Shown: one piece after another, positions 2,049-42,786 of the stretch
How the letters are laid out: every line of letters starts with the position of its first letter
Numbering within the stretch: the stretch's first letter is position 1
NCBI GenBank assembly: GCA_965153355.1
Contig: OZ231126.1
Location: 33,728,001 to 33,792,000, forward strand
Direction of reading: 5' to 3'
DNA: 64,000 nucleotides
Source of the DNA: Flaccisagitta enflata
Taxonomy: Eukaryota
Made by a program: the position numbers and the translations under genes
Notes under the pieces: generated by a model
Databases searched by the model: none
Told to the model about the DNA's origin: nothing
What the model saw: only the letters and a program-made list of their open reading frames with translations

Positions 2049-2085
<37 letters not shown>

Positions 2086-12155: not shown

Positions 12156-13020
12156 TTATCTTCTTCTCAGTACATCTTGTAGGATTCTTGTTGATCCAAG
12201 CAGGCAGATTTTTTGCCACATAAATTGGTCGGGGCACCCAGGAATTTTTGTCAGTCTGTCAGATAGATTCATAGTGACAGCGCCAAGTCCCCCAATCACC
12301 ACCGGGATAATATCTGCATTTGTGCCCCACATCTTCTCAAGATCAACTTGGAGGGGGACCATATTTCGATATTTTTTCCATTCTCCTTCTTCCCAACATT
12401 TGTGTCCACTGGACAGGATATATCTGTTATGAACATTTTTTTGTTGATTTTGCCCTTGATTATGATGACAGGTCTATTGGCTCCAACAGGTCTCGCTGTT
12501 ACTATGGTTTGGTTGTACACAATTTCACATTTTTCAGATATGGTTACTTCAGGTGGATTGTGCATAAACCAATTCTCGTCCACTTGCAGTCCCAAGTGCT
12601 GGGAAGCCATGTAGTTTATGCACCTACAGATGTTGTTGTGTCTCGTGAAGTATTCACGTTTAACCAATACATCACATGCACCTAGAATATGGAAGATTGT
12701 TTCTGGGTCTTTTTTGCACATGCGACATCTGTCATCACTGCTTTTCAAAATATGTTTTTCGTGGAACTTAGTAATTAAAGCCAATTCCTGTGCCCCACAG
12801 ACGCAACTTTCAGTGTGCGGGCTGAGGTGACATTTTTTTAACCAAGCCATGGATTGCTTCATATCTGCATCGCCCTCTTGGAGTTTATGGGTAAATGCAC
12901 TGTGTAGTGGTTTGGCAAGGTATGCATGGGATTGTGACTTCGTTATGGCATCTGACTGTTTTGGCTAACACTCTTGCCTGGGCCATAACGGATATATCAA
13001 AGAAATTTTTTGGGATTTCG
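12156..13020 (-). mobile_element. Degenerate, 5'-truncated non-LTR retrotransposon of the RLE type (R4/Dong-like): CCHC zinc knuckle plus restriction-like endonuclease, frameshifted
   Basis: CRMCKKDPETIFHILGAC knuckle, RHN motif, a degenerate RPD motif (NRPVIII), ITDISCP, then a frameshift into DIIPVVIGGLGAV...QKICLLGSTRILQDVL*. Confidence 0.85.
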
Positions 13021-16183: not shown

Positions 16184-19100
16184 ATGTCTACCATGAAAAG
16201 AAGAAGGCGATTGATATCCCTCTCATATTCTACGGAAAAGAATGATGAGCCGGAGGAGGAAGAGGAAGTTGAGGCGACTCTCCAACAGTCTACAACGTCG
16301 GAAAATCTCGTCGTCGACGTCGACAGCAACGACAGCAGTAGCAGCAGCCTGCCGCGACGCAGCACGATCCCGAAGGCGGAACGCGTCGTCGACCGGAGTC
16401 TGTGGCTGCGCATCGGCGACATCCGCTTCAATCCAACGGTGACGTTCGCCTCCATCATCTTCGTCTGGCTATTCGTTGCTTGGTGCATCGTATCACCGGA
16501 AGGGGCGCAAGTGCGTATCTCCGCCACCAGGGATTGGATATCCCATCACTTCACCTGGATGTACGTGGCAATCATGAACGGCTGGATCTTGTTTTGGATA
16601 TGGGTTTATTTCTCGAAATATTCCTCGATCAAGTTGGGCCGCGACGACGAAGAGCCCGAATTTAACGACGCGAGTTGGTTCATGATGTTTTTCTCCTGCG
16701 GCGTTAGCATTGGATTATTTTTCTACAGCGTTTCGGAACCTATGGCGCATTACACTCAGGTTTTTATTCTAAAATACCATTCGCAACCTTGTATGGTATG
16801 CGAATGATTTCTTCAAGCAATGATATTATAACATTGACTATTAAACAATTCATTACACATAGCTCACTTGCGACGGATAAGGATGGGCATTGATAGCCAC
16901 CGGGAGCGGGATTGATTTGATTGCGTTAATTTTTTGTCAACCAAAACCTTAATATTCCAGTAAGTGTCTGGAATTTTTTCCTAAGAAACAAAATTGGTGA
17001 TGTGATTGAATGCCGTTTTCCTTATTGATTTTCTCTTTGCGGCTCATTGCGGCACACCTTTTAAAGGTTGTCTTTTCATATGCAAATTAGTGTGAGTGAC
17101 TAATTTGCATAAGAAAATGTTTCTTAGCGACTTCCAAGTTTCATAGAATTTTAAGGGATGGTGGTAGATGTTGTTTGGAAGCTATGGCCCTAATTTCAAT
17201 CCAAATTTCGCATTTCTAAAGCAGGAAAATGGCGATTTGAGCAAAAACAAAAATGAAAAGACGAATTGACGTTTAATTTGATCATATTTGCCAACATCCA
17301 CTAGAAAAAAAATTGCTTGATAACATCTTGCTAGACGCATATGACTATAACGCAACCAGAACAAGTCATCCAAGGATCGCACATGGTCAGTACTGCCGAT
17401 GCTTGACTATGAGTTGAGTGAAAAATTGCAAAGGCCATGTCACAGCTCTAGGGGCCGATGTTTGTGGACACCTGAGGGCAATTTAATTTTCCGCTGATTC
17501 ATTGGGAATGGTGGATTCTATCCTGGGGATTCATTGGAAATTCACCGAGAGGCTGGATTTTTCCTGCCCAAGAGGTCTATGATTTGATTTGACCCTGGAG
17601 GCCTGGTTTCTCTCTCTTTCCTTTTTGAGGCCTGAGAGGTTGATTGGAGGCCTGAGGTTGATTTGAGGCCTGAGAGGCAGATTTGAGGCCTAAGACGAGG
17701 TTGAGGCCTGAGAGGCTGGATTTGAGGCCTGAAAGGCAGAAGCTGGGAGGGGACGACACGCACGGACGGACGCCGGACGGACGTATGGAAATTCACCCCT
17801 GTGTCCTACAGGACATCGGCCCTATGGGGCCGCTGCCCAAAAAGGGTAAAAAATACTTATTTGATTTTTGACCACTCCATACTAGCAATGACTACTGCCA
17901 TGTTATGACATCTTACAGAGCATTGTATTTGGTTAAAATATTCCAGCGGGCTTACTTTAAGGATTCACATTACAGCATAACCGATATGGGGCCGATCAAT
18001 TTGCTCCGGACAACCTGTTGGCGCAACAATCGATTAACTTGGCGCTGTTTCATTGGGGAATACACGGATGGATCGTCTACTCCATGGTTGGATGCCTCAT
18101 CGGAATCATCTCTTACCGAAAAGGTCATTGGATTTTTCCTGCTGTCGGTCAATCTGTCTATCTATCTGTATCTCTCTCTCTCTCTCTCTCACCCTCACTC
18201 TCTCCCTCACGACCTCACCCTCTCTCTTCCTTATTACTCAAATTCCATTTCTATCCTAAGGTCTTCCAATGTCGTTAAAAAGTTGTTTTTGGCCCCTGAT
18301 TGGTGACAAGATTTTTGGTTTACTCGGAGATGTCGTCGATATTCTGTCAATCTTTACAACACTCTTTGGCGTTTGCACCGCTTTTGGATTAGGTGCTCGG
18401 CAAATCAACCAAGGTTTGTTGGTGCCGAGCAAGGACGAATATGTTTGGGCGGGCAACAGTAAAGCCCATTTTTTTAGCTGAAATAAGCCATGACTTTTTG
18501 CTTAAACCGTAAATCATCGGCAATTTGAATACAATGAATAACTAGTCATCCAAGGATCGCACATGGTCAGCGGTACCCGATGCCCTGCTTTATTGCTTTT
18601 TCAAAGTACTATCCTGGAAAAAATAAAAGTCCAAGCTGAATAAAAGAATGATTTGATTTTAAATCTGATAAGATAATGACCATTTTCATAAGCCCAGTGT
18701 TTAGAATAACGTTTTTAGATTTTAGAAACCACTTGCATCTGTAAGGGTATGTCTTGGTAAAGAGTATGATGCCATTTTGAAGTAAACTACTTGATTAAAA
18801 AAAAACAACCGCACCCTATTTTGAGTTAAAGAATAAGAAAAACATATAATTTGAACATTTTTTTGTTGAGGTGATTTGAAAGATTTTCAAATTTTCTTTC
18901 ATTCTAGACCAATCTCAAAACTGTATCTCAAACGGTTTAGGAGCTAGAGCTTGTCAAAGTTATCTTCTAATTTGTAAAGATACTCATTTTTCAATTGGAT
19001 TGCAAACTGAAAATGGCAATGTTTTTACTTATTCTTATGCCATTTCTAAACGAATAAAGCTAGAATTTCCAGATTGGAACCAAATAAAAGATCTTTTCAA

Positions 19101-21651
19101 GAGCTTTCTTACAGTCTAAGATCTTATTAGTTATTTTGAAATTCAGTATGACAATTTGCCATTTAAAAGTGCGGCTTTTTTTATGAGTTGAGTAGTAATG
19201 CCCCCACACATTTTTTTACAATTTCTAAGAATGAACGTTCTCACTCTTTTTGATGTAGAATCCAAATGAATAGAGCTATGAATCTCTGCTTGGCGGCAAT
19301 AGATAGCCCTGATCAAGAGCTTCAAAATGGTCACTGATTTTCCTTTCAAATATATCAAAGCGACACTGTAACAAAACCTCATGCATTTATAATCTATTCA
19401 AGTTTTGTGTCGATTTCCTAAGATCAACACTTCCACTTATTTTGATGTAAAATCTAAACGAACAACGCAATGAGTCTCAGCTTGGCACCATTTGCTAGCC
19501 CTGTTTATTAGCTGCATTTTGGTCACCAATTTTTATGTCAAATCATGTATATCAAAGCTATAATATGACAAAACGTCCTGGACTTTTATTTTTTCCTAGA
19601 TAGTAGTGAGGTGGAAGCAGAGCAGCGGCCTCAAACAGCTGATGTCCTGCAGAACACAGGGGTGAATCATTACATCCTTCCCTCTCTGACTGATTTGGGA
19701 GGGTTGACTTATTTTAGGCCTGTGATGATTGGTTTTGGATTCGAGTTATTTAGGTGTGATTAAGCAGGGGTTTTGTTTCACAGGCTAGGATTTGGGCTTG
19801 AATGCTGAGATGAGAGCCTCATGGCTGGGATTAGGGCCTCAATGCTAGAATTTGGGTCTTCAAGCTGGGATTTAGACTTTTAGGCTGAGATTTGGGCCAT
19901 CAGGCTCGGATTTGGGCCATCAGTCTGGGACTTGAGTCTTGAAGACATTTGGGTCTAAGGTCCTCGGGGGAGGGGGAACATATGGACGGATGGTCATAAT
20001 AGTTCACCCCTGTGTTCTACAGGACATCGGCACTTTGGGGCCGCTGCCCAAAAAGGGCTATGAAATGGTAGGCGCATCTTTCGCACCTGAGGGGGTTCAA
20101 GCCACACAGTAGTTTATACTAATTATTTTTGGTCTGAGACGAGGATTGTTGCGTTTTCTAGCCTTTATTCGCAGTAAAAACTCTACTAACAATTCTTATG
20201 AAGGATTCCACATATTGAACCCGGAAATCGACATCAAGATGACGACTCAAGTGATGATCATATGGGTGACAACGTTCATCGCCACGATTTCAACCGTCAC
20301 CGGCATTGCCGTCGGCATAAGACGAATCTCAGAGTTCTGCATGGGAGTCGGATTTTTCATTCTCGGATGCTCGTTTTATCTAGATGATCCTGTCTTTACC
20401 CTCAATTCCTTTGTACAGGTATTTCGAATGTCCTCAACTGACCTTATAATTTACCAGATCAAAACAAGTGACTGATTTATGTCATTGTAAATTCAAAAGG
20501 GCATCCATCATTGTTAATAAAGGCCCTGTCCACCATTTTAATTCCATTTATGCAAATGGTGAGATATTTATGAAGGGATGATGATCATTTCCGCAGAACA
20601 TCGGGTTTTACCTCTCCACGTTGGTCCAACTTGGCTGTCACACCGACTCGTGGGAGCAATCGGGTCCTTCCCATGGAGGCGTGGATCGCGGCCGCGCCTA
20701 CGACGACGGCAAAGCCGACGGCCCAAAGGAATGGATGTCCATGTGGACGACCTTCTTCTGGGGCTTTTGGTATTCCTACGCGCCCTTCGTCGGCATCTTC
20801 TTGGCCAAGATCTCGAGAGGGCGGACGATTCGCGAGTTTATCAACGGCTCCATGACCACGCCCATCATCTTCGTCTTCTTCTGGGTGACGAATTTCGGCG
20901 GCTCCGGTCTCAAAATGGAAAGAGAAGCCGCTGGATTGAGTCTCTGCTGCGATCACAGACTCAATCTCTCCGCGGTCGCGCTGAGAGCGTCGGAATATCA
21001 CAACGCGGCATTCAATCGTTCCGTCGTTTTTGAAAACGACGATTTGAACCAACCTCCAGTGAAACTTCCCGTTGTAGACCACAGTCTTTGCGACCAATCG
21101 AAAGGGTGCGACCAGTGCTCCGATTCGTTTTGGAAAAGATATGCGCCGAAACTTTCGGAAGTCGAGTCTGCGTCTCCCGTTACGTCGGAGCCGGATGTCA
21201 AAACTTTTCCTCTTCCTCCTCCATCTTCCTACGCGACGATGGCGTCTTTCCTGACCTCGATCGCCAACGGAAGTCTTCACGCCAACATGCCGACTCCGTT
21301 TCGTGACGGCCGGCGCGAGATCGTCCGTTTATCTTGTCTGGAAGTGGAGCATCAGTGGTTCGCGTTGCTACGTTCTTACGGCGGACTCGGACAATTCCTA
21401 TCCGTCATCTCGATGGGCGCCATCGTGCTCTATTTCGTCACTTCCGCCGACTCGGCGGCTCTCGTCATCGACAGTCTTTCGGCCAATGGATCGGAAACGA
21501 CGCCCAGAGTGCAGAGAGCATTTTGGTCCCTCATGGTAAGATTGTTGTAGCAAGAGAGGTTGTAAATTTGCACAATGAAAATGTGAAATGAATTTCTCGT
21601 TTCCCCAGTGTCTTGCCTTTCTTGACTTTCTATCAGTCTGCCTCTCTTTTT

Positions 21652-21687
<36 letters not shown>

Positions 21688-21807
21688 CGTCGCAGCAGGG
21701 GAGAGGAAAGCCATATTTCTTCATTGTCGGGGTCTTCATATGAGTTAGTGGGTTACCCCTTTTGTTTTTTCTTTTTTCTTTTCTTACTTTTTTTCCCTCC
21801 TTGTGTC

Positions 21808-21858
<51 letters not shown>

Positions 21859-22120
21859 TTTTCTTTTTTCTTTCATTCTATGGTTTTAATAATCCATTCA
21901 TTCATGCCTTTATTTGCTCATTCATTGATTCATTCACTTATTCTCTTATTCTTTGTTTCTTTGTTTCTTTATTTTTTAATTTCTCTTTTTCTCTCTCTTC
22001 TTTCTTTTTTTCTTTGTTTATTTCTTCCTTTGTTTCCTTGTCTCTTTTTTGTTTCTTTCTCTCTCTCTTGCTGTCTGATTTTCATCCTCTCTTTCCTTCT
22101 TTCTTTCTTCTTTCTCTTTT

Positions 22121-22184
<64 letters not shown>

Positions 22185-22208
22185 TTTTTCTTTCTTTCTT
22201 TCTTTATT

Positions 22209-22241
<33 letters not shown>

Positions 22242-25200
22242 GTTTCTTTCTTTGTTTCTTTCTTCTTTCTTTTACTCCCCTTTTTGGGCAGCGGCCCCAA
22301 AGGGCTGATGTCCTGTAGAACACAGGGGGGAATTTCCAGATGTCCACCTTTCGTCCGTCCGTCCCCGTTGGCCATCAAGACCTCAGATCTGCCCTCCCAG
22401 CCCTCAATTTAGCCTTCGAGGCCTCAAATCAGCCTTCCAGGCTTATAATCAGCCCCCTCAGCTTCAGATCTGCCCTCCAGACCTCAAATCTGCCCTCCAG
22501 ACCTTCAATTAGCCTCTAAAGCATCAAACCAGCTGTCCGTGGCGCAAATTTGCCCTCAAAACCTCAAATCAGCTCTCCAAGCCTTAATTCTGCCCTCCAG
22601 ACTTCAAATATGCCTTCAGTGGCCTAAATTAGTTTTCTAAGGCCTGAAATATGCCCCCTCAGGACATCTGGAAATTCCCCCCTGTGTTCTATAGGACATC
22701 GGTCCTTTGGGGCCGCTGCCCTGCTCTCACTCCACTTCATGACTGAATCACTCCCAGCAGGGCATTGGGTACCGCTGACCATGTGCGATCCTTGGCTGAC
22801 TAGTTTTCTCGTTCCCACACTCTTAGTCCAGTCTGTTGATGCAAGAAATTAAGCAAACTGGGCTTTTCTGGCACAAAGCTTAAAAATTTGCACACAAGTC
22901 TTTAAAGTCATATAGATCATGATAATGAAAGGTGCAGGTCAAAAAAATTTGTGAACCTATCTTAAAGATTCATTAAACATTTTTAAAATCATGCAATCGC
23001 CAAACCATTTGCCTCAGGGCAATAGAATTTTATAAGCTGGAAAACGTTTTATACATGTCCATACCAAATTTCAACTCAATAGCTTTTTTAGAAGCAGAGA
23101 TATAGCCAATTTACTTTGGGATGTATTTTTCTCAAAAAAGCCCTTTTTTAAAAAAAAAGCGCAATTTTTATATACAAAAATAAATTGGCTAGGTACAATT
23201 GTACAATCATCTGTGATCTTTTGTTTTTAAGACTTTTTAAGCGTATAATTTAAAATCAGGGTTAGGGGTGGGTTTAGGGTTAGGGATAGTTTTAGGGTTA
23301 GGGTTAGGGACAGGGTTAGCTTTAGGGCTGAGGGTTTGCTGGGTTTTATGTATTACGGCCCAAAGCTATTCGAATTAAAGCTTCGGCTCTGGCGGAGGAT
23401 TTGGAAAGGAAAACAAAATCGTGCAGAGAATCATTCATTTTGTCCATTGGCTATATCTCTGCTTTGAATAAAGATAAAGAGCTGAAATTAAGTGTGCATA
23501 TGTACAAAATGCATAATTCTTAGCTCTCTAAATGCATACATGGCCAAAAGATATTCGTTATTCGTTATCTTCAGTTATTCGAATAAAAATGGTGATTATC
23601 TTCATCTTATCTTTTTGTTATTTTGAGAGCTCGAATAATCATCTTATCTTTATCTTATCTTTTCGATTTTGGGAGATAATCTTATTCAAAAAAATTCCAA
23701 TAACCTCGAATAATGCTTTTTTACCAGAATACGCGTAAAGTCATAGCCTCATAGGAAGTTCTTATAATTGTATTTTTCAGCAGTGGCAGCACGATAGAGG
23801 GACCCAGACAAAGGAAAAAAAATGTTTTTTTTACTCAAACTAATGCCTTTTCTAACATCTCTGAATTTTTGTTGGTTTTCAAGAGCTAAATAAGCCATTC
23901 TAGGGAGCGTCTTTTTCAGTGAACTCATGATTTTAAGAAGTACTTTGCACATCTTTTTTAGTATATTTCAACCTTATATGGGAACGAGGGCCCACTGGTC
24001 AAATGTTGGTCATTGAAGGCTGATTAGGGGGTGTATATGCAAACAAGTTACAAAAAACAGGGTGCACTTTAAATTCACGATATCAGCCTAATCAGGGTAT
24101 GCATAATTGCATAATTGTCTATTGTATTGGTTATTCTCATGGTTTATCCTTCTCTAGCTCTCTTAGAGTCGTATGTCAGGGATTCATCCTCAATGATTTG
24201 TCAGCGCATTGTTATTCGAAAAGTTATTCGAAAAACGAATAAAAGATCATCATCTTATCTTATCTTCATCTTTGGCAAAATGATGCTTTATCTTATCTTA
24301 TTTTATCTTTTTGAAAATTTAGTGGTTTTATCTTTTATCTTATTCAAATAATCAAGGTGAGTTATCTTGGACAATGGACATGTATGTTTAAATGTCATTG
24401 CTGTCACTCAAGCGGTTTGGCAATGGCATAATATGAAAATTTTAAATGAATTTCTAAGATAGGTGCTCAAATTTTTTTGATGTGCACCTATCGTATTCAT
24501 GATCTACATGGCTTAAAATTTTATTTTCCAAATTTCAATGCTTTGTGCTGGAAAAGCCGAGTCCTTTCTTCAATAACCTGGACTATCTGCCCATCTTCCG
24601 TTCTCGCCTCCTTCATTTCTATATTTCCCTCCTCTCCACTCCCTTCTACAGGTTGGTCTTACCGCGACAGCCATCTTAGTAACCACGGGAGAGACCGGCT
24701 TACGAACTTTACAATCCGTTCCTCTCATCATGGGCTTCCCGTACGCCTTCATTATCTGCTTTATGTGTTTCTCACTTTACTTCCTGTTACGTCACGAGAA
24801 GAACGAGATCAACTTGATGACGGATCGACGATTTCGACTCCACATTCTCGATCCCGTCACTCGACTCAAACCCAAATCTCTCGTCAACTTTGTCTTCAAC
24901 TTCATCGCGGCGCCGTGGACGATCGCCAGTGCCGGCGCCCAGCTGCTCGACGTCGCCTTCTGGCAGTTGCTGCTGCTTCTCGGCGTCACATGGGGCGGCG
25001 CCGTCGGGTTGGCGTTGGCCTCGATCGTGGCGCCGGATGTGATGGCGTTATCTTTAATCTTTTACGTCACGTTCGCCGTTTCCGTGGCGACGATTCGCTA
25101 CGCCATTCGTGGCGTGTGTGGCGTGGCCGGTGGCGTGATGTGTGACGGTTTCGTCGGATTTTGTTTGTTTCCGGCGTTTGCCATGCAAATTCAGGCCGAA

Positions 25201-25317
25201 GTGAGGACCGATGAGGAGAGTGAGAAGGGTGACAACGACGACGACAACGACGACGACGACGACGATGGTGATGTCGATGATGACGAGGAGAAGGAAATGA
25301 AAATGCGGAAGATTTAG
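16184..25317 (+). CDS. BCCT-family (betaine/carnitine/choline) transporter, 898 aa. Exons 16184-16759, 17976-18123, 18261-18413, 20204-20418, 20597-21535, 24652-25317
   Basis: Family motifs IKLGRDDEEPEFNDASWFMMFFSCGVSIGLFFYSVSEP, FHWGIHGWIVY, YRKGLP, WTTFFWGFWYSYAPFVGIFLAKISRGRTIREF and YFVTSADS. All five introns are GT-AG with compatible phases (0,1,1,0,0); a TACTAAC branch point precedes exon 4; spliced length is 2697 nt ending in TAG. Confidence 0.92.
18609..19603. mobile_element. Tc1/mariner-type MITE (TA TSD) in BCCT intron 3
   Basis: TA|ctatcctggaaaaaataaaagtcca ... tggacttttattttttcctagatag|TA. Confidence 0.75.
21760..22275. repeat. (TTTC)n pyrimidine-rich microsatellite
   Basis: Read directly from the sequence. 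Confidence 0.9.
22824..24585. mobile_element. Non-autonomous DNA transposon with TAG...CTA termini and 3-bp TSD TCT (Academ-like) in BCCT intron 5
   Basis: tct|tagtccag...ggcttttctggcacaaagc is inverted to gctttgtgctggaaaagcc...ctggacta|tct. Confidence 0.65.
23256..23345 (+). repeat. Degenerate interstitial (TTAGGG)n-like tract
   Basis: ttagggttagggatagttttagggttagggttagggacagggttag. Confidence 0.75.
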
Positions 25318-25784: not shown

Positions 25785-27320
25785 CAGTGCGGCGCATGAA
25801 AAAGTTTCCATCAGTTTAGAAGCTAGTTAATCCAGTTGTAATACTTTAAACAATTAAAATCTACAAGATTTTATAACTTTTTCAAAAACTCTACATATCT
25901 AGTCCAATCCCATTCATGTGACTAAAATCGTTAGAAATACCATAAAGGTTCAAAAATGATGAGCAATTTACTCATGTTTGAAAGCGAACAGCCTTTGATA
26001 GAACACAAAGTTGATTTTGTTTTCTTTAAATACATTGAAAACGGTCTATGATTCATACATCATATCCATGTTCATTTTAAAGAGCTTCAAAAACTCTACA
26101 AATCTTGACCAAGCAGAACTTTGTGGCTTGGTTTGTTTTGAAATGACATTAGTTTAAAGAAAAATGGTCATGTTTTCTATCAAGCAAAATATCACATTTT
26201 TTCACTCCTTTTTTTCAAGGTAATTTTGATATGCACAGGCCTGAAAATAGAGCGTGCCCGCGTGCCCGCGTGCCCGGTGCACGCAGTTCTGCTGTCGGGC
26301 ACGCAGCATTTACTAGCTGCGTGCCCGGCGTGCACGCTCTTGTGTCTCTTTTATTTTTTTCATCTCTCATGCTTAAAAAAAAAAAACAGAAAAAAATGAG
26401 CAAAATGGCCACTCTCGGCCTTCTTTTCACCTTCTCGCATTCAATCCTTCAACCAATCACTCATTCATTTATTCATTCATCCATCCATTTATTCTTTCAT
26501 TCACTCATTCATTCATTCATTCATTCATTCATTCATTCATTCATTCATTCTTTCTTTCTTTCTTTCTTTCTTTCTTAGATTGCGAGGCACAAGTATTTGT
26601 GTAAACTCGGCCTTTTTTTCATCTTTTACTTTGTGCGTTTAAAAGTGTGACACTGGAATTTCATCCTTTTTTGTTTTCAACTGAGAAAAAAAGGTGGATA
26701 CGTGTACCTGGCTGATTAGGCATGTATGAATGAACGTTTTTGATGAATGAACATTTTAATGAAAGTGAATGAAGGTGAGTGAAGGTGAGTGAAAGTGAAA
26801 GTGGGAAGGAGATAAGAAGAAAGATTGAAGCCAGGATTGGCAGTTTTGCGCGGTTTTGACATTTGCGCAATAGACTGACAGACCAACCAACCGACCAATT
26901 GAGGGACAGGCATGACTTCTTATACACACATAAAGATAAAGTCAAATTAAGCTTAGCCTAACTTTTTTTCTAATCAATGCATCAAAACGCTCCAAAATTA
27001 AGAACGTTGTAATTATTTCACTAGTAGCTATCTTTATCTCATTTGAAGGCTTCAGAAAAAACATGTGTGGTTAGAAGTTTGGTAAAACAACGTTTTTTAC
27101 CGGGCACGCTCTTTTCCTGTCGGGCTCGCTAAAATTTTGGGGTGCGTGCCCGGCGTGCACGCTTAGAAGAAATACTAATTTCAGGCCTGGATATGTACTA
27201 CTTCAAATCAATATCACGCCTAAATGAAAAGAGCTAGAATCAAATCAATGTCACGCCTAAACAAAAAGAGCTAGAAATCTGAGATTGACAAAATTGGAAA
27301 CTTTTTTATGCGCCCCACTG
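25785..27320. mobile_element. Tc1/mariner-type MITE (TA TSD) hosting nested insertions
   Basis: TA|cagtgcggcgcatgaaaaagtttcca ... tggaaacttttttatgcgccccactg|TA. Confidence 0.8.
26236..27189. mobile_element. hAT-type MITE nested in the Tc1 MITE
   Basis: TIRs caggcctgaaaatag and ctaatttcaggcctg; 8-bp TSD gatatgca/gatatgta; subterminal cgtgcccg motifs. Confidence 0.75.
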
Positions 27321-27733
27321 TACTGCAGTGCTTATAGAAATGAGGAATAATTTTTCAGTCATATTCACGCGACTCTTTTGCCCGCTTTTTTGGTCGATCG
27401 GTTGGTCCATCCATCCGTCGGACTGTAAATCCATTGTTCTGTTTAAGTTTCCAAACGCTTGTTAAGCCTTTATCATTACAGCCTCTGCCTGCCTGCACAC
27501 CTTGTTTTTATTTCCCTGATTTGTGAATCCCAACTACAGTGAAAAACTTTTCCTCAGAAATGCGAAATTTGCGCCACAAAGGTTATTCCATTCATGTAGA
27601 GCGTGAACTCAGTTTTACGAGTAAATTTGGCAAATGAAATTAGCCTGTCAGAATATTTCTTAAACAAACAGAACTAACGAAATAACGTCTTGTTCCAGTG
27701 ATTTCCTGGTAATCACCAAATTTTCACCGTGAT

Positions 27734-27786
27734 TATAAAAAGTGAGCAACTGCGTTTTTCCTCACTTCGATCTTTCTTATCCCACG
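27734..27786 (+). promoter_or_regulatory. TATA box + initiator + 23-nt non-coding exon 1 of the peptide-precursor gene
   Basis: TATAAAA at 27734-27740; TCACTT initiator with its A at 27764 (30 nt downstream); donor cacg|gtaagt at 27787; matching acceptor ttttcttcag at 29303, 28 nt before the ATG. Confidence 0.65.
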
Positions 27787-27840
27787 GTAAGTTCCTCACT
27801 TCGTCCATGATTTTTTTTAGTAGGCCTTTTTTTAACTCGT

Positions 27841-28860
27841 AACAAGGCCAAGAGATGTCCAATAGATGCGTCCTCTTTAGATGTAAGATATTATCATAGA
27901 AATTATTAAGATATAAAGATATTAAGATATAAAGATATGAAGATATAATAGTATGAAAATATAAAGATTCTGAGATAAAGAGAAAAACATACTGATTCCT
28001 CTCTACCCTCCCCCCCACGCCTCCCCCCGCGCCTCCCCACCCCTCCCCCCACCCCCCACGCCTCCCCCACGCCTCCCCACCCCTCCCCCCCACGCCTCCC
28101 TACGCCTCCCCCCACGCCTCCCAACCCCTCCCCCCACGCCCCCACGCCTCCCCACCCCTCCCCCCCACGCCTCCCTCCACGCCTCCCCCCACGCCTCCCC
28201 CCACGCCCCCCACGCCTCCCCACCCCTCCCCCCGCCTCATCCTCATGAAGAGACATGAAGAGACATGAAGGGACTTGGAGAGACATAGAGAGATATGGAG
28301 AGACATTTAGAGATACGGAGAGACATGTAGAGACATGAGGAAACATAAGGAGACATATAAGAGACATGAAGAGACATACAAGACATAAGAGACATAAGAG
28401 ACCTAAGAGATACAAGAGACATAAGAGATATAGGAGACATAAGAGATATAAGAGATAAAAGAGATACAAGAGATACAAGAGATACGAGATATGAGAGATA
28501 TAAGAGACAAAGGAGACGTATGAGACAAATAGGAGACATAAGAGACATATGGGAGACATATAGGAGACAAAAGAGACAACGAGACATAAGAGACATAAGA
28601 GACATAAGAGACCTAAGATACATAAGAGAAATAAGAGACATAAGAGATATAAGAGACATATAGGAGACAAAAGAGACAAAAGAGACGAAAGAGATGAAAG
28701 AGACATAAGAAATATTAGAGACAAGAAGAGACATGAAGAGAAATAAAGAGAAAACCTTGAAAATCGCGTTTTAGAATTTTCGCGTGACACTCAGACAGAC
28801 ACACAGACAGACCTACCAAGGGACAGACCCTCTTATAGAGATGCGAGGACGCATCTAAAA
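27841..28860 (-). mobile_element. Helentron/DINE-like element inflated by a C-rich (CCCCCACGCCT)n tract (28005-28235) and an (AGAGACATA)n satellite (28245-28740)
   Basis: Ends acaaggcc...tagatgcgtcctc and cagaccctcttatagagatgcgaggacgcatctaaaa are shared with other copies (42760, 54886, 59595). Confidence 0.65.
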
Positions 28861-29331
28861 ACATATGTAACCGAGGGATGGGCAGCCAGTTGGATAGGAA
28901 GTCGGACACGACTATCTTTCAGCCGCGATCAAGTGACTTGAAAATGAACCTAAAAAGTAACCCGGGGTTTTGATATCGTCGCAGACGGGTGTGTGTGGTT
29001 TTACTACTCCAACCCCAATCCCCTCCTCAGACACATACCCCACACATGTTCTCACACTTTTGTGGCTCGACCAATCGACGGGCGGGCGGACGGACCGACA
29101 AACAGACAGTTAAACACAGACTGAAAGACAGAAAGACAGACGGACAGATAGACAGTCGGACGGAAGGAAGGAAAAATCATCTCAAAGAGTCCACGACTAT
29201 AAATGATGAATCCTTATACGGTAACAAAAAGTTTCTTATCGTCATTACCTTGAGAAATACTCGCATAAAACATTTTACAACATCTCTTATCATTTTTCTT
29301 CAGGATCGGTCACCCTTCAAAAAAACTAAAA

Positions 29332-32300
29332 ATGTTGGCAAACTTGTTTCTCCTACTCATCGTTGGTCTTCAGTTCGTCGTTGGTAAGCGTAAAATAATA
29401 ATTTTCCACCTATCTTACGTAGTGCAAACTTGCACATGCGCAAGATGTCCGTCGTACAACTGAAGCATGTCATGTTTCCATCTCATTATCTTTACTTTAT
29501 GTACCCATGCCAAAAACGTGGTGTCAGAAAGTTTAAGCTCAAAAACGTAAAAAGGTACTAAAATTTTAAGTTATTATATCAATATTTCGAATTGCCAGGA
29601 AATTCATTGTCAAAAATTCTCATTGTTTTCTTTGTATATCGTTAATATTTACTCGAATGACAAAAAAATTCATGACGAAAAAAAATTAGGAAAATTTTCT
29701 TCAAAATGCCGCCAAGCAGAAATTTGTAGCTTAATTCGTTTAGAAATTATGATCAAATAAAAGTGAGAGATATAGCTCAGAGAGTCAAATGAATATGCTA
29801 TTTCCAGCAATTGAGATATTGACATTTTGAGTTTTAATTGTTGTAACTTTTAACGTTTTTGAGCTAGACCTTTCTGACACCACTCAAATGATAGATTTTT
29901 TGAAACTTTTTAAAAATGCTCATGCTCAAGTTTTGTCTCTTACTAACAAGCCAAGCAAGTCAAAACGATGTACCCTGTCATCAGATACAACTGCAACCAG
30001 CAAAACCTTTATTGTGCCCAAAGTAATCTTTTTGAAAGATTCAGATTTGTTTCATCTTGAAGCATATAACCTACCATTTTTTCATGCAAAATTCCACATC
30101 TCTGGCTTTAGCGGTTTGGCTTCCACATGATTTTAAAATTTGGTGAAATTTGATGTAATTTTGATCAAAAATAGCTTTTTTCAGCAGTTTTTGATGGTTA
30201 AATCTCTCTTATATTGGTTTAGGTTGAGCTTTATTGGTCATATTGGTCATAAATGAACACTATTTGATCATCCCCTTGAATTCTTGTGGATTTTTTTAGT
30301 AACTTTATAGAATATCTGGCCTAAAATGAAGAGCGATCTGACAAAAAACAAAGAAAACCTTTCAAAATTAGACGAAACTACTGTTTTGCCACATTAAATT
30401 CATCAATCTGATGAGTATTTCTAAAAATTCATAAACTGTGACATATTTTCTTTCATTCAAGACCAGTGTGACGATTTTAGCTTCTTTTGTTTAGAAATAA
30501 GGTTGATTTAAAGTTACATGTCTGCTCATGCGTTTTTTTACAAAGCCTTTCTTGGTGCTGACCACATTTTCACTCAAAATGATGTGTAGGCCAAACCGCT
30601 TGAGCCAGTGCTATGAAATTTTGCATGAATAAATGGTAGGTTATGTGCTTGCAGATAGCACCAATCAGAATTTCTCAAAATGAATACTCTAAGCACAATA
30701 AAGGTTCTGCTGGTTGCAGTCGTAATTGATGACAGGGTACATTTCTTTTCTTTGGGCATGGTTATGTATAAAGCAACCCTAGAAATCAATACTACATCCA
30801 ACCATGATACCACTAGTAATTAATCCGGTGCCATGTTGCTGTAGGAACCCCACTCGCGGAAGAGAAAAAAGGATGGGGTGATGGACAAGCCGCGTCAAAC
30901 TCTGGAGCCTCCAATTCTAACAACATAGATCTTGGTATGTTGCTCTGAGACGGTGACTTTAAAAAAATAAATGTAAATACCGTATTTCCTCTAATCTCAC
31001 TCAGTGGGAATTTTTTTGATACCCAATTTTAAAAAAAATCCTAAAAAACTTTAAACAAGGCCGGACACGCGACTAAATGTGTATCCGCGAGAGCAGCAAA
31101 ATAAAATAAGCTGACGATGGCAACAAAGTAAGCTGACGATAACAAGCCCAAGTATTTTGGCAGAACCAGTGATGCCCATAAATGACGAAAAGCTGAGTGT
31201 GACAGACAGACTCTTCGGCATAGGTAATTAAGTTGCGTGCACGCGACTAAAAATCAAAGCTTCAATTATGATTTATATGCTAAATAACACTCATCATTTG
31301 CTTGTCCTCTCCAAATATTAGGAAAGAAGGCGGAGGAAGAGAAGAGATGGTGGGATGGTAATGCTGCCTCCAACTCTGGCGCCAGCAACACTAACAACAT
31401 CAGATTGAAGAAGCAGAAGGAGGAAAAGAGATGGTGGGATGGAAATGCAGCTTCTAACTCTGGGGCTTCTAACACCAACAACATCAGTCTGAAAAAGAAA
31501 GAAGAAGAAAAGAGGTTGTGGGGTGGCGGAAACGGAGCATCTAACTCTGGCGCATCTAACACCAATAACATCAGCTTGAAAAAGAAGGAGGAAATGGAGA
31601 AAAGAAGGAGAGGTGGAAGAAAAGGTGGAATGAATGGAAATTCCGCATCAAACTCAGAAGCATCTAATGTCAACAACATTCATATTGGCAAAAAGCAGGA
31701 GGAGGAAAAAAGATTTTGGGGAAGCGGAGCAGCTGCCTCCAACAGTGAAGCCTCAAATGTCAACAACATCCTGAAGGGCAAAAGAGAGGAGAAAGAAAAA
31801 AGATGGTGGAATGGAAACGCAGCTTCGAACTCAGGTGCAAGCAACGCCAACAACATCAGATTGAAGAAGGGTGAGGAGGAAAAAAGATATTGGGGTGGCG
31901 GAGCAGCTGCTTCCAACAGTGAAGCCTCAAATGTAAACAACATCATGAAGGGCAAAAGAGAAGAGGAAGAAAAAAGATGGTGGAATGGAAATGCAGCCTC
32001 TAATTCTGGTGCAAGCAACGCCAACAACATTAGATTGAAGAAGGAGGAGGAAGAGAAAAGATATTGGGGTGGTGGAGCAGCTGCCTCCAACAGTGAAGCC
32101 TCAAATGTAAACAACATCATGAAGGGCAAAAGAGAAGAGGAAGAAAAAAGATGGTGGAATGGAAATGCAGCCTCTAATTCTGGTGCAAGCAACGCCAACA
32201 ACATTAGATTGAAGAAGGAGGAGGAAGAGAAAAGATATTGGGGTGGCGGAGCAGCTGCTTCCAACAGTGAAGCCTCAAATGTCAACAACATCATGAAGGG

Positions 32301-34278
32301 CAAAAGAGAAGAGGAAGAAAAAAGATGGTGGAATGGAAATGCAGCCTCTAATTCTGGTGCAAGCAACGCCAACAACATTAGATTGAAGAAGGAGGAGGAA
32401 GAGAAAAGATATTGGGGTGGCGGAGCAGCTGCTTCCAACAGTGAAGCCTCAAATGTAAACAACATCATGAAGGGCAAAAGAGAAGAGGAAGAAAAAAGAT
32501 GGTGGAATGGAAATGCAGCCTCTAATTCTGGTGCAAGCAACGCCAACAACATTAGATTGAAGAAGGAGGAGGAGGAGAAAAGATATTGGGGTGGTGGAGC
32601 AGCTGCCTCCAACAGTGAAGCCTCAAATGTCAACAACATCTTGAAGGGCAAAAGAGAAGAGGAAAAGAGGTTCTGGGGTGGAAACGCCGCCTCTAACAGT
32701 GGTGCATCTAACCAGAATAACATCGATTTGGGCAAAAGATGGGGTGGAAATGCTGCCACCAACAGTGAAGCTTCCAACCAAAACAACATCAATTTAGGAA
32801 AGAGATGGGGAGGTAATGCAGCCAGCAACAGTGAAGCTTCCAACCAGAACAACATCGATCTGGGAAAGAGATGGGGAGGAAATGCAGCTACCAACAGTGA
32901 AGCTTCCAACCAGAACAACATCAATTTGGGAAAGAGATGGGGAGGAAATGCAGCCACCAACAGTGAGGCTTCCAACCAGAACAACATCAATTTGGGAAAG
33001 AGATGGGGAGGAAATGCAGCCACCAACAGTGAGGCTTCCAACCAGAACAACATCAATTTGGGAAAGAGATGGGGAGGAAATGCAGCCACCAACAGTGAAG
33101 CTTCCAACCAGAACAACATCAATTTGGGAAAGAGATGGGGAGGAAATGCAGCCACCAACAGTGAGGCTTCCAACCAGAACAACATCAATTTGGGAAAGAG
33201 ATGGGGAGGAAATGCAGCCACCAACAGTGAAGCTTCCAACCAGAACAACATCAATTTGGGAAAGAGATGGGGAGGAAACGCTGCAACCAATAGTGAGGCT
33301 TCCAACCAGAACAACATTAATCTGGGGAAAAGAGGTGGCAATGCAGCTGCAAATAGTGGCGCTTGCAATGGTAACTTCATTATGAAAGGAAAGAGAGAGG
33401 AGCAGGCAAAGAGATTCTGGGGAGGTAATGCAGCATCCAACAGCGGAGCCTCCAACAAAAACAACATTAACCTGGGTAAGAAGGAAGAGGAGGAGAAGAG
33501 ATGGTGGGGTGGAAATGCTGCTTCCAACTCAGGTGCTAGTAACGCAAATAACATCCGATTGAAAAAGGATGAGGAGGAAAAAAGATATTGGGGTGGTGGA
33601 GCAGCTGCTTCAAACAGTGGAGCTTCAAATGTCAACAACATCATGAAGGGCAAGAGAGAGGAAGAAGAAAAGAGATTCTGGGGTGGAAACGCCGCCTCTA
33701 ACAGTGGTGCATCCAACCAAAATAATATCAACTTGGGCAAAAGAGGAGGAGCAGCGGCTTCAAACAGTGAAGCACACAATCAGAACAACATCATGCTTGG
33801 CAAAAGATGGGGCGGAAACGCAGCAACAAACAGTGAAGCCTCCAATCGGAACAACATCAATCTCGGTAAAAAGGAGGAGGAGGAGAAAAGATATTGGGGT
33901 GGTGGAGCAGCAGCTTCAAACAGTGAAGCTTCAAATGTCAACAACATTATGAAGGGCAAAAGAGATGAAGAAGAAAAGAGATGGTGGGACGGTAATGCTG
34001 CTTCCAATTCTGGTGCCAGCAATGTTAATAACATCAGTTTAAAGAAAAAGGAAGAAGAGAGGAGATGGTGGGGAGGCAATGCAGCTTCTAACAGTGGAGC
34101 ATCCAACCAGAATAACATCAGCTTGAAGAAAAAAGAGGAGAAAAGATTGTGGGGTGGTAATGCAGCTTCTAACAGCGGAGCATCAAATCAAAATAACATC
34201 AGCTTGAAGAAGAGAATGGGTGGAGCTGGTGCATCCAACAGTGAAGCCCACAACCAAAACAACATCATGCTCGGCTAG
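29332..34278 (+). CDS. Secreted multi-copy peptide (neuropeptide-like) precursor, 1032 aa, 38 related peptides. Coding exons 29332-29383, 30845-30934, 31322-34278
   Basis: Signal peptide MLANLFLLLIVGLQFVVG. Phase-1 introns 29384(gtaagc)-30844(tgtag) and 30935(gtatgt)-31321(attag). Exon 30845-30934 encodes the same repeat (GWGDGQAASNSGASNSNNIDLG). Repeats are flanked by KR/KK, acidic EEEE spacers and GKR/GKK amidation signals; the CDS ends ...NNIMLG-TAG. Repeat copies differ mostly at synonymous positions. Confidence 0.93.
29500..30765. mobile_element. Compound foldback/MITE sequence in the precursor intron
   Basis: Inverted pairs 29518-29560 vs 29843-29883 and 29968-30130 vs 30575-30742; outer ccatgcc/ggcatgg ends. 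Confidence 0.55.
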
Positions 34279-34671
34279 AAACGATATGTTATTTTCCTTG
34301 TTCTCATGAAGCGCATGAAACATTTTTATCTAAGTTGTTTTGTGTCAAACTATCATAAGTTATGTAATGTTAAATCATCTAAACGGTTTCCGTGGCCGTT
34401 TCATTGCCCGTTGTATTTTTTTTCTTTTAACTTCTTGTGTTTACATAAAACAAGCGTGAACATTATCATCAATTTTTCTTTGCCAGTGAAAACCAGTTGA
34501 CGAGCAAGACCAACCAGTGGCAGTGTCGATCAAAATTCTCGATAAGTGTCTCTTATTTTCCACTGAACTAGGGTCTTAGGGAGTTAAAAAAAGTGTGTTT
34601 GTGAAATTGTTTTTTTGTGTGTGATGTTTGCTCGCGCGCGTGCGTACGTGTGTGTGTGTGTGTGTGCGTGC

Positions 34672-34703
<32 letters not shown>

Positions 34704-34737
34704 CTCGTCTGTCTGTCTGTCTCTCTCTCTCTCTGTC

Positions 34738-34774
<37 letters not shown>

Positions 34775-34869
34775 GTCTGTCTGTCTGTCTCTCTCTCTCT
34801 TCTCTCTTTCTCTCCATTCATCACTTACAACTCAAATTGAATCGTTATTTTGTTAAAAGGGATCCCGGG

Positions 34870-35110
34870 CGCCGTTTACGTCACGCCGGGAAAAGGAGAG
34901 AGAGAGAGAGAGGGACGGTAAAAAGATTCATTCACACGCGATTTTACGGCCAACCAGAGGCCTTCCTGTCGTCCTTTTAGCACGTTAGCCAATCAGAAGG
35001 CTTCCTTTTCAAAGAGCCAATCAGACACTGAGAATCGAGGCCCCGGTGACGCGCCGGAAGTCAAGTGACGAGAAATGTTTCGTTCGTCTTTTCGTCAGTC
35101 ACGTGGTGCG
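34870..35110. promoter_or_regulatory. CpG-rich, TATA-less promoter-like cluster (CCAAT boxes, ETS, CRE/E-box-like sites)
   Basis: AGCCAATCAG at ~34987 and ~35015, a variant GGCCAACCAG at ~34948, CCGGAAGT at ~35054, TTACGTCA at ~34876, GTCACGTG at ~35098. Confidence 0.6.
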
Positions 35111-36126
35111 GGATTTCCCTTCATACTTTCTTTGACTCGCCCAGTGTCAGCCCAACAATTTTCTCCCTCGACGATTTTTTTTTCGTTCTTCGCGGACGAT
35201 TCAAGCTGCGCTTGGCAGAAGATCAGAGACCGACTGACCTTTTTGTCGAGTGGAGGGGTTGACTTAAAGGTAGATAATCGAGGGGAAAGCATCGGTCATT
35301 TTGTGTTGATTCAATCTGGTCATTCTGGTGATCGAATTTTTCCAAGTTACTTCTGTTATCTAGCAGAAACATGACCGTCCTTAATAAAACTACTTTTTGT
35401 ATACATTTGACAAACTCTCTGGTGGAGGAAGAGGAGCGCACATGTAGTCGTAGAGGAGTGAAAACGGAGGAGTAGGAGGAAGAGAAGGGGTTGTGGAGGA
35501 TGAGAAAGATGGGAAAGAGGATGAAGAAGGGGAAATAAGGAACGATAAAAGTAATCAACCGAAACCAACGTAAAGAAATGCGTGACTAACTTTTCAGATT
35601 TTACAATTTTATCTCCATTCGAAAATATTCATCTTTTGAGGATGAAATTTATTTTTACTTCAGCTAAAATCATGGAAACAAAACGAAAAAAATGTCGCCA
35701 TGCCAGGGAAACGGTATTAAAAGAAACACTGCAAGAATGAGAGAAAAAAAAAGATCAACTAAAAACAACACAGGTGTGAAAGAAGCTATGAGAACCCACC
35801 CGGGGTTGAAATTCGCGATGGAGTTTTTTTTTTTCTGCTCTTTCAACTTCAAAAACACTCGGCGCTTTTTACTTTCAGCTACAACTAGTCGCAGTCGCGA
35901 GTGCGGCAACGAGCAACCCGCAGCGATTTGGAAAACGTCATGGCATCTCCATAATGAAGTCTGTCCGTCCCTCCGTCTGAGTTGGAATCCGTACACTCTT
36001 ATATTTGATAAACAAGCACCTTTTTGGGCTTGGGCCGGGCATGTTACGCAAAATTATTCTTTTTGAGGCCTGAACGTGGTTAAGAGCGTGCTTGTCATAT
36101 AAAAAAACCGTATTACATTGGAATAT

Positions 36127-36755
36127 ACAACCTTGGAAATAAGTTTATCGCATCACTTAAAGCCTCATATCTCCTTTACAAATAAAAAAATCTAAGAAAA
36201 ATTGGTGAGGTTCTGAAACATCTTTAATTTTTCTAGCAGTTGGCGCCAACTGCGTTACTGTGCATCTAACCGTTTAGAAATGAGAGCTGAACGAAGTTAG
36301 GTACCTCATTAGAAAAATGGCATAAAAATGGCATTTTTAAAACGTGGTTCATGGGAGATTGTGCACCCGCTCATCAGGCTGTTTCAACGAAGCAATGGCA
36401 TCAAAGGCGCAGTGTCAAAGGTCAAACACTTCTCCAGTTAGCCCAGGAACAGCCCAAAACTCAAGCTGATACAATCTCTATGAGTCTATGGTCCCAATTG
36501 AGGCGATGGCAAAGACAAGAATGTGCAACACGGATGGCAGGACTGAAAAAAATCGCGCTAAAGTCTGGAGGAAGATCACACTATCATACCTTTAGTCGCA
36601 GTACAAAAGCATGCAAAGACGCAGGGAAGCGTTTGAAAAGGTCAAGGAGGGCAAGACCAAGTATCAAGCTTGTCACAGACACATTAATTGTACTATCTTA
36701 TCCATAAAATGCCCCTTGATCAATAATGCGATAAACTTTTTTCTCAAGATAGTAG
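36127..36755 (+). mobile_element. Decayed Tc1/mariner transposon with a C-terminal transposase remnant
   Basis: GDCAPAH (QDxAPxH-like), PRNSPKLKLIQ (WPxNSPDLNPIE-like) and KVWRKI...YKSMQRRREA...GKTKY across frameshifts and stops; inverted ends ataagtttatcgcat and atgcgataaactttt. Confidence 0.7.
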
Positions 36756-42267: not shown

Positions 42268-42786
42268 ACAAAGAACCATCATCGTGTCATCACCACCATC
42301 AAGTGTCTTCTATTTCTCATGCAGTTGTAATTGCCACAACAGCAAAAACATCGCATGATGGTATCATTATTATTGATTAGTGATCACACCCACTTTCATC
42401 TGCATCACTGGCGTGCTCATGTTCCTTTTAAAAAAAAAAGTGCCACCAGAGCTACAGTATTCATCTTAATCTAGAACCCGATCACTACCGCTATCATGGC
42501 ATTTAATGCGTAATATCAACCGTCGAAAACATGACAACTCGGATGTACCAATTTGGCACTACTAACTATTTCAATTCAATTTAGAAAAGTGGACATCGCC
42601 ATTGTTATCATGATACATATCATGAACAATTGGATAAAAACCATAACTAATGGCATGAATGATTTCCCACCAACCTTTAAGTTTAACTATTGCTTGACAA
42701 AACCACCGACCAATCTGTCTCACACGCGGTTTTACGTTCCCCATTTTCCCTCTTCTTTTTAGATGCGTCCTCGCATCTCTATTATA

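Follow-up and report, generated by a model that had tools for sequence, protein, structure and literature searches.

The window analysed here is a 64,000-nucleotide stretch of Flaccisagitta enflata DNA (contig OZ231126.1, positions 33,728,001 to 33,792,000 of the forward strand), and it contains a four-exon gene on the plus strand, at approximately 27734-34465, that encodes a repetitive product of 1032 amino acids (aa). The gene model was obtained by reading the exon junctions and joining the exons in a script, and the gene is real, spliced and expressed. We tentatively read its product as a secretory precursor from which 38 related peptides would be released.

Gene structure and expression

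The elements of the gene are as follows.

27734-27741, plus strand: TATA box TATAAAAA, found by direct reading and assigned a promoter role by its position alone, 30 nt 5' of the inferred start
27764-27786, plus strand: exon 1, non-coding 5' untranslated region (5'UTR), with an initiator-like TCA(+1)CTTC, no ATG and the donor CG/GTAAGT
29304-29383, plus strand: exon 2, with the remainder of the 5'UTR, the predicted signal peptide MLANLFLLLIVGLQFVV and the first base of a Gly codon (phase-1 intron)
30845-30934, plus strand: exon 3, with a short acidic propeptide TPLAEE, KK, the first unit GWGDGQAASNSGASNSNNIDL and then a split Gly codon
31322-34278, plus strand: exon 4, coding part, with 37 more units, KR/KK sites and acidic spacers, ending ...NNIMLG
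34279-34465, plus strand: 3'UTR, approximate end; contig record 8 of run X1 spans 33690-34465

Joining 29332-29383, 30845-30934 and 31322-34278 gives 3099 nt, that is 1032 aa plus a stop, so that coordinates and reading frame agree with the complete gene put forward in the original prediction, including its two upstream coding exons supplying a signal peptide and a first repeat. The start ATG at 29332-29334 lies in exon 2 and has an A at -3, and the TAG stop at 34276-34278 directly follows the Gly of the final unit. The stop-to-stop frame 31288-34278 spans 996 aa, of which 984 residues (P0001) lie within the exon. All three introns (1517, 1461 and 387 nt) are of the GT..AG type, with the donors GTAAGT, GTAAGC and GTATGT and pyrimidine-rich acceptors ending in AG. 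An upstream non-coding exon with a TATA box and an initiator had likewise been proposed; both elements are present, but position 27734 belongs to the TATA box, and the transcript itself probably starts at about 27764. No canonical AATAAA was seen in the sequence 3' of the stop, and the end of the 3'UTR is therefore only approximate.

The N-terminus of the product, MLANLFLLLIVGLQFVVG, combines a hydrophobic core with V in position -3 and G in position -1. As read from the sequence, the predicted signal peptide is 18 residues long and consists of M-L-A-N, a 13-residue hydrophobic core and then V-x-G before TPLAEE; the predicted mature N-terminus is thus a six-residue acidic propeptide followed by KK. 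The entire 1032-aa protein contains a single Cys, and no further copies of the unit motif were found elsewhere in the 64-kb window when all frames were scanned.

Ten sequencing runs were listed for 27700-34500, and runs X1, X2, X5 and X10 were mapped onto 27000-35500. Four marine metatranscriptome runs from a single study contained 0.30-0.31 of the sampled words, which is approximately the exonic share of 27700-34500. Runs X5-X9 contained small shares (0.06-0.09) and were not used as evidence, X5 giving only a few low-depth pieces when mapped. Both junctions downstream of the signal-peptide exon were found as GT..AG joints in metatranscriptome contigs at the positions first proposed: 29383/30845, which ties the signal peptide to the repeats, in one contig of run X2 with 32 letters on its short side, and 30934/31322 in X2 (90 letters on the shorter side) and in X1 (depth 101). 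Contigs tile 31384-34465 over exon 4, whose depth drops to zero in two intron bins, 28988-29271 and 30976-31259, and again from bin 34668-34951 onward. The remaining joints within exon 4 are not GT..AG, have 21-letter sides and are read as repeat collapse. The transcript is placed on the plus strand because of the GT..AG joints and the open reading frames (ORFs) that carry the signal peptide.

The first junction, 27786/29304, was not seen among the mapped contigs of X1, X2, X5 and X10, but catalogue ORFs cross it: after a leading MG, P0025, P0002 and P0026 read TSIFLIPR/IGHPSKKLKM, which is what exons 1 and 2, once spliced, give in the 5'UTR frame. After its MG, P0025 is identical to the spliced model over residues 3-89, across all three junctions, and P0002 shows one difference from the model over the same span; beyond about residue 90, short-read contigs of this type jump between repeats. 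All 16 of the catalogue ('merc') ORFs that were fetched begin with MG, whatever comes next, and we take the leading ATGGG to derive from a cDNA adapter, probably a template-switch oligonucleotide. With MG read as adapter-derived, the first genomic base of the transcript falls at about 27764, within TCA(+1)CTTC.

Two further features of the gene region may be recorded here. A 699-codon antisense frame at 31680-33779 (minus strand), together with several long frames in both directions, is a by-product of the repeats. In intron 1, at 28006-28751, about 21 copies of a C-rich 10-12-nt unit, CCCCACGCCT, are followed by a 9/18/27-nt array of AAGAGACAT (about 27 copies, 18-nt period).

Repeat units, predicted cleavage sites and selection on the core

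The core motif is present in all 38 units, which measure 18-21 aa and share a 17-residue core, G-[N/A]-A-A-[S/T]-N-S-[E/G]-A-S-N-x-N-N-I-x-[L/K]. Identical copies are frequent (8 of WGGNAATNSEASNQNNINL-G, 5 of WWNGNAASNSGASNANNIRL and 5 of YWGGGAAASNSEASNVNNIMK-G), and 23 distinct peptides are predicted; the 38 units and the eight- and fivefold copies of WGGNAATNSEASNQNNINL-G and WWNGNAASNSGASNANNIRL counted earlier were correct on recount. KR stands directly before 33 of the 38 units, and the other five are preceded by KKK (twice), KK, RK and KKR, so that every unit follows at least two basic residues. Gly plus basic residues follow 26/38 units (17 as L/I-Gly, 9 as K-Gly). The cleavage grammar first described, KR/KK flanks with a terminal Gly, stands, with Gly missing in 12 units. 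Among the 37 junctions between units, 24 have an acidic spacer between basic pairs (EEEE in 11 cases); the other 13 consist of GKR alone.

With net charges of -1 to +2, the predicted peptides are polar and nearly neutral, and they have Trp at the N-terminal and I-x-L at the C-terminal end. Their predicted C-termini are L, I or K amides or a free L, and an RF or W ending is absent from all 23 distinct peptides. For WGGNAATNSEASNQNNINL-NH2 the computed monoisotopic mass is 1972.899 Da, and the masses computed for WWNGNAASNSGASNANNIRL and YWGGGAAASNSEASNVNNIMK-NH2 are 2115.983 and 2138.980 Da. N-x-S/T sequons number only 5 (all N-I-S) in a protein with 196 Asn, against 23.3 +/- 4.0 expected, and none of 2000 shuffles had 5 or fewer. 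The depletion fits passage through the secretory pathway, as weak evidence, since the repeat units are not independent.

Two main tandem arrays lie in exon 4.

31671-32664, plus strand: array of a 174-bp double unit (WWNGNAASNSGASNANNIRL-KKEEEEKR + YWGGGAAASNSEASNVNNIMKG-KREEEEKR); Tandem Repeats Finder, 5.7 copies, 95% matches
32674-33333, plus strand: array of a 66-bp unit (WGGNAATNSEASNQNNINL-GKR) without acidic spacer; Tandem Repeats Finder, 10.0 copies, 93% matches

The Tandem Repeats Finder scores of 1744 and 1082 for these arrays, and the recurrence of the family in independent transcript catalogues, show that the repeat pattern did not arise by chance, while the 93-95% identity within the arrays indicates that both are young. 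Such identity, in a window very rich in simple repeats and with short-read contigs that collapse across repeats, could also be expected of a neutral, recently expanded, microsatellite-like coding array, or of a mis-assembled repeat, without any selected product. The distribution of nucleotide changes speaks against this. Eight core positions (G-5, A-2, N0, S1, A3, N5, N7 and I9) are invariant in all 38 units, and variation is concentrated at positions -4, +2, +6 and +10. At the same time, the invariant Ser+1 is encoded by TCT (9), TCA (3), AGT (24) and AGC (2), that is by both TCN and AGY codons, Ser+4 is encoded by five codons, and AAC and AAT are mixed at the Asn positions. The 38 units comprise 31 distinct nucleotide cores and 20 distinct peptide cores; the eight identical peptide cores of the 66-bp array are encoded by 5 different nucleotide sequences, and the pooled ratio of non-synonymous to synonymous change (pN/pS) over the 31 distinct nucleotide cores is 0.32. 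The 17-residue core is under purifying selection. As a frame of 996 codons has also stayed open, the gene is spliced and expressed, and five or more diverged lineages have kept the family together with its signal peptide (see below), a neutral array is already disfavoured and, in our judgement, very improbable.

Relatives in marine transcript catalogues

Relatives were sought by an exhaustive HMMER search of 1.84 billion representatives and by a word-indexed protein search of a 5.8-billion-cluster index. The HMMER search returned 23 proteins at E <= 1e-3, of which 10 were inspected and 7 proved to be true relatives; the three that were rejected (P0006, P0014 and P0015) are repeat proteins of charged or acidic composition with no relation to the family, and the other 13 matches (20-32% identity, 431-1947 aa) were assumed to be compositional as well. 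In the word-indexed search, no relative was found among 8000 scored candidates of similar length, and 16 matches were found among shorter proteins (14 from a marine transcript catalogue, 2 from ENA). All 16 share the architecture, and none is named or carries a Pfam domain; seven clusters that were checked hold 13 members, likewise without a name.

Judged by signal peptide and unit, the relatives form at least five diverged groups: that of the window with its sister (P0031, P0032), a P0004-like, a P0005-like and a P0009-like group, and P0008. A similar signal peptide (..LLIVG[LF][QH][FC]V..G) is followed in all groups by a short acidic propeptide whose last two residues are KR or RR, and P0004, P0005, P0008, P0009 and P0031 have the same signal-peptide layout, with hydrophobic core and V-x-G motif kept. 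The units follow EEKR and read W/WW/QWW-G-x-x-A-A-[ST]-N-S-x-A-[SA]-N-x-N-N-I-x-[IL]-G-[KR], with [IL]-G-[KR] present in nearly all of them. Spacer length varies between 0 and about 20 residues, and in one group the unit is extended (..NNIKIDPALLGKL-GKR). Variable spacers around a constant unit are the pattern expected if the peptide, and not the polyprotein, is the object of selection. In the P0009 group, Gln stands directly after KR, which is the usual signature of pyroglutamate, and the QWW start of these units is possibly a pyroglutamate start.

The sister sequences P0031 and P0032 have the same 5'UTR reading, TSIFLIQR/IG.P, and apparently share the transcript start and the position of the first intron with the window gene; they differ in the signal peptide and have KKR instead of KKG before the first unit.

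That the product would fall into no recognisable family was likewise borne out: the homology searches led to unnamed marine transcript ORFs and to no described family. A Pfam search with the 984-aa product of exon 4 gave no family at E <= 1, the curlin repeat PF07012 included; the ESM Atlas gave no usable match for residues 1-400; none of 397 pattern matches in JGI metagenome contigs was confirmed by tblastn; and the motif strings of the window peptides and their relatives met only irrelevant chance matches in the main texts of papers, supplements being outside that search.

A probable precursor of secreted peptides

The reading that we favour, with a probability of roughly 0.45, is that the gene encodes a multi-copy, convertase-processed and partly amidated secretory precursor of signalling peptides. 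The 1032-aa product would enter the endoplasmic reticulum by means of its 18-residue signal peptide, and a Kex2/PC2-type convertase would then cut after the KR (and KK) pairs in the regulated secretory pathway. A carboxypeptidase would trim the basic residues from the cut ends, and a PAM-type enzyme would amidate those peptides with an exposed Gly (26/38 units). The predicted output is 38 peptides of 18-21 residues in 23 forms, among them WGGNAATNSEASNQNNINL-NH2 eight times, along with short acidic fragments from the spacers, and extracellular signalling, in the manner of a neuropeptide or hormone, would be the single most likely function of the released peptides.

According to PMC3890597, proneuropeptides are recognised by a signal peptide, mono- or dibasic sites, a C-terminal Gly, an N-terminal Gln and a conserved motif. 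The window precursor displays a predicted signal peptide, dibasic flanks, C-terminal Gly and a conserved unit with variable spacers. Among the convertases, an R at P4 marks furin sites; P4 is here E or L, not R, and the sites look PC1/3-, PC2- or Kex2-type rather than furin-type. This type of precursor is well known; the peptide family, for which the searches brought up no described relative, would be a new one, and its conservation along the whole unit and its curlin-like register make it an unusual case.

Several observations weigh against this interpretation. The 12 units without Gly end in L-KK, which means that they would escape amidation, and cleavage at KK is weaker than at KR. Conservation extends along the whole 17-residue core in an alternating pattern (A3, N5, N7, I9, L11) and is not confined to a C-terminal receptor motif; this is unusual for the ligand of a G-protein-coupled receptor and suggests a structural constraint. 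Run X10 (polyA RNA, 'organism A', about 6 in 100 read, 12.2 million records) gave essentially nothing on the exons, which indicates either that expression is not ubiquitous or that the sample represents another tissue, stage or species. The contig depths of about 40-100 in whole-community RNA could suit an abundant gland product better than a neuropeptide, depth being a poor measure in such material. Finally, the uncut repeats are modelled by AlphaFold, at low confidence, as a beta-helix, and they match the curlin CsgA weakly, with compositional bias and in register.

Should the peptides be released, they would represent a new and unusually large (38-copy) family, kept in several marine plankton lineages and strongly represented in community RNA, yet missing from annotated protein databases and from the literature searched, and unannotated metatranscriptome catalogues would be seen to contain entire secretory-peptide families. 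Exact peptide sequences and masses are now given for peptidomics, receptor deorphanisation and assembly assays.

Structure models, a possible uncut solenoid and a possible secreted material

The interpretation offered with the original prediction stands as regards gene model, signal peptide, units and grammar, but it did not consider that the uncut array might fold as a beta-solenoid. AlphaFold2 was run without an alignment (single sequence), with five models per block. The 22-residue block (32671-33405) was modelled as a regular beta-helix with three strands per unit, at a mean predicted local distance difference test score (pLDDT) of 58.5 (37.9-58.5 among the models) and a predicted template modelling score (pTM) of 0.53; no residue reached a pLDDT of 90, and 19 of 245 lay at 70-90. 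The 29-residue block (31804-32670) gave a similar stack in which the charged spacers form loops below pLDDT 50, with a mean of 52.9, models down to 27.6 and none of 289 residues at 70. Two to three strands were placed in every unit. Foldseek against the PDB found nothing at E <= 0.001, the Lolium ice-binding protein (IBP) 3ult standing at rank 30 with E 2.7. With VIA-align, the EtpA adhesin (8vba) reached Z 18.4 (root-mean-square deviation 2.6 over 234 residues) and a beta-helical antifreeze protein Z 17.2; Z declines smoothly to 13 at rank 50 with no stand-out match, and repeats commonly reach middling Z. This result characterizes the model as a generic parallel beta-helix and says nothing firm on the protein itself.

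Taken at face value, the models and their superpositions would favour an uncut secreted protein of about 110 kDa, folded as a parallel beta-helix with one coil per 22-29-residue unit and acting as an adhesin, a surface- or ice-binding protein or a structural protein. Its interior would hold Asn ladders, the charged KKEEEEKR stretches would serve as external loops, and turns and ladders could account for the invariant G, A, N, I and L positions. Yet model confidence is low, the five models spread widely, and Foldseek found no match at its threshold. Moreover, four features would be left unexplained: the K-R at 33/38 units, spacers of 0 to about 20 residues around a constant unit, a frame that ends on the Gly of a unit, and a minimal six-residue acidic propeptide followed by KK. 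We rank the uncut solenoid below processing because these four features outweigh a low-confidence single-sequence model, and regard it as unlikely.

The one match of phmmer against the PDB sequences (177,635 sequences) was the curlin CsgA (8enq; E 4.2e-4, 22.1 bits, bias 16.7), aligned in a 22-residue register over five repeats, with G-G-N-x-A on G-G-N-x-A and I-x-L on I/V-x-L/V. A different function for the same processing is conceivable, namely that the released peptides are a secreted material or a defence product of an exocrine cell and not signals. As a material, strand-turn-strand peptides of about 20 residues, rich in Asn, Ala, Ser and Gly and secreted in large quantity, would self-assemble in an amyloid-like manner into an adhesive, mucus, net or coat; alternatively, they would act on other organisms. 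Alternating conserved positions through the whole core are typical of the face of a beta-strand, AlphaFold places strands in every unit, and the 22-residue register is shared with the CsgA repeats. The near-neutral, polar peptides with their hydrophobic ends, the high contig depth in community RNA with none in the polyA run X10, and the very high copy number (38) point in the same direction. On the other hand, the CsgA match is weak and the Pfam curlin repeat goes unmatched, classic marks of signalling peptides are present, namely the amidation signals and, in relatives, a possible pyroglutamate start, and the peptides are neither cationic-amphipathic, as most antimicrobial peptides are, nor Cys-rich, as most toxins are. 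We consider a material or defence product somewhat unlikely, though the strongest of the alternatives to signalling peptides.

A specific form of this idea, which we regard as doubtful and place below both the uncut solenoid and the general material or defence product, is that the precursor serves to deliver a eukaryotic peptide amyloid, with every excised peptide, about 20 residues long, forming a single curlin-like unit (W-G-G-N-A-A ... N-N-I-x-L). Once secreted, the 38 peptides of each molecule would stack via Asn ladders and build a functional amyloid or hydrogel outside the cell (adhesive, feeding mucus or coat of a marine planktonic animal) and, if so, would constitute a convergent, proteolytically 'pre-cut' counterpart of bacterial curli. 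Other explanations share the remaining probability.

Genomic context

Only one neighbouring gene could be recognised, a BCCT (betaine/carnitine/choline) transporter gene of several exons at about 16163-25317 (plus strand). Four of its seven ORFs tested (16163-16807, 20113-20475, 20585-21550 and 24577-25317) match PF02028, and the protein, which has a long, variable extracellular loop, is 38-43% identical to that of the ctenophore Pleurobrachia bachei (EukProt label) and 42% to that of the cnidarian Nematostella, its best named relatives. Ten further ORFs of the window matched no Pfam family, and Rfam (gathering thresholds) and ARAGORN found nothing in the whole window. A 945-codon open frame at 1446-4283 (plus strand), with poly-Gln and Ser/Ala-rich tracts and with neither a Pfam family nor an ESM Atlas look-alike, may be a large exon of some protein. 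Positions 12296-12964 (minus strand) hold an ORF fragment of a retrotransposon resembling a long interspersed nuclear element (LINE), with a zf-RVT score of 20.5 bits, below the cut-off of 27.5, and an ORF at 36291-36707 resembles, by eye alone, the remnant of a mariner-type transposase. Tracts of (GT)n, (CT)n and (GACA/GACG)n are unusually frequent across the whole window. Gene structure, LINE-like fragment and microsatellite density speak for a eukaryote, probably an animal, that occurs in marine plankton samples.

Beside tetranucleotide microsatellites, the window has four copies of a dispersed ~42-nt element that contains a hairpin (AGATGCG..CGCATCT); the minus-strand reading of the element is LDASSHLYKRVCP.

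28820-28861: copy of the ~42-nt element
59586-59627: copy of the ~42-nt element
42761-42783, minus strand: copy of the ~42-nt element
54887-54909, minus strand: copy of the ~42-nt element

It is hugely represented in every RNA run mapped, with word depths of 5556 (X2) and 12930 (X1); in X10 the mean depth is 181/166 by read direction over a 284-base bin, with about 2500 reads at 28846. Its loose ends differ on both sides, and it resembles the conserved terminus of a highly abundant mobile element, perhaps Helitron-like or similar to a miniature inverted-repeat transposable element.

Comparison with known systems

A signal peptide followed by tandem KR/KK-bounded copies with Gly is the established architecture of multi-copy proneuropeptides, and the precursors of FMRFamide/Antho-RFamide and of GLWamide/Wamide-MIP resemble the window gene product in these features, in Gly as amide donor, in acidic spacers and in copy numbers in the tens. 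There is, however, no sequence relation: the window units end in NNIx[L/I/K] and not in RF or W, their Trp is N-terminal, they are long (18-21 aa) and conserved throughout, and 12/38 lack Gly. Membership of the RFamide, Wamide/MIP and GLWamide families is ruled out by the predicted C-termini of the 23 distinct peptides, none of which is RF or W. Precursors of orcokinin and pedal peptide contain many copies of about 13-20 aa that are conserved lengthwise and separated by KR, and their peptides are as a rule not amidated. The window precursor shares with them the many mid-length, KR-separated copies, but none of the searches brought up a shared motif or a named homologue, and most window peptides would be amidated if processed.

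The G-G-N of the units led us to consider two annelid and mollusc families. GGNG peptides carry their GGNG at the C-terminus, with a disulphide. GNXQN-type precursors, according to PMC3890597, contain just one short peptide each. With 38 copies, an N-terminal G-G-N and 1 Cys in the whole protein, both are ruled out.

Fungal Kex2-processed repeat proteins and precursors of pheromones or of ribosomally synthesized and post-translationally modified peptides (RiPPs), such as alpha-factor, Rep1 and UstA, likewise have a signal peptide followed by KR-bounded tandem peptides that are released in the secretory pathway. Gly-basic amidation signals are not known as a fungal feature, and the introns of 0.4-1.5 kb, LINE-like fragments and dense microsatellites of the window are not fungus-like.

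EtpA (8vba), MpAFP (3p4g) and Lolium IBP (3ult), all with Asn-rich short repeats, superpose on the low-confidence model of the window protein, but identity is 3-15%, and these proteins lack the grammar of dibasic sites and acidic spacers. Curlin CsgA (8enq), with its beta-arch repeats of 19-23 residues, shares the 22-residue period, the richness in G/N/A/S/Q, in-register positions over five repeats and the predicted stacking of strand-turn-strand units. It is, however, bacterial and without KR/EEEE grammar, whereas the window gene is spliced and eukaryotic and does not match PF07012 at E <= 1. The resemblance to CsgA might thus tell how the unit folds, and does not amount to membership. Together with the conservation of the whole unit, this curlin-like register raises the question of whether some 'neuropeptide-like' precursors are in fact makers of self-assembling extracellular material.

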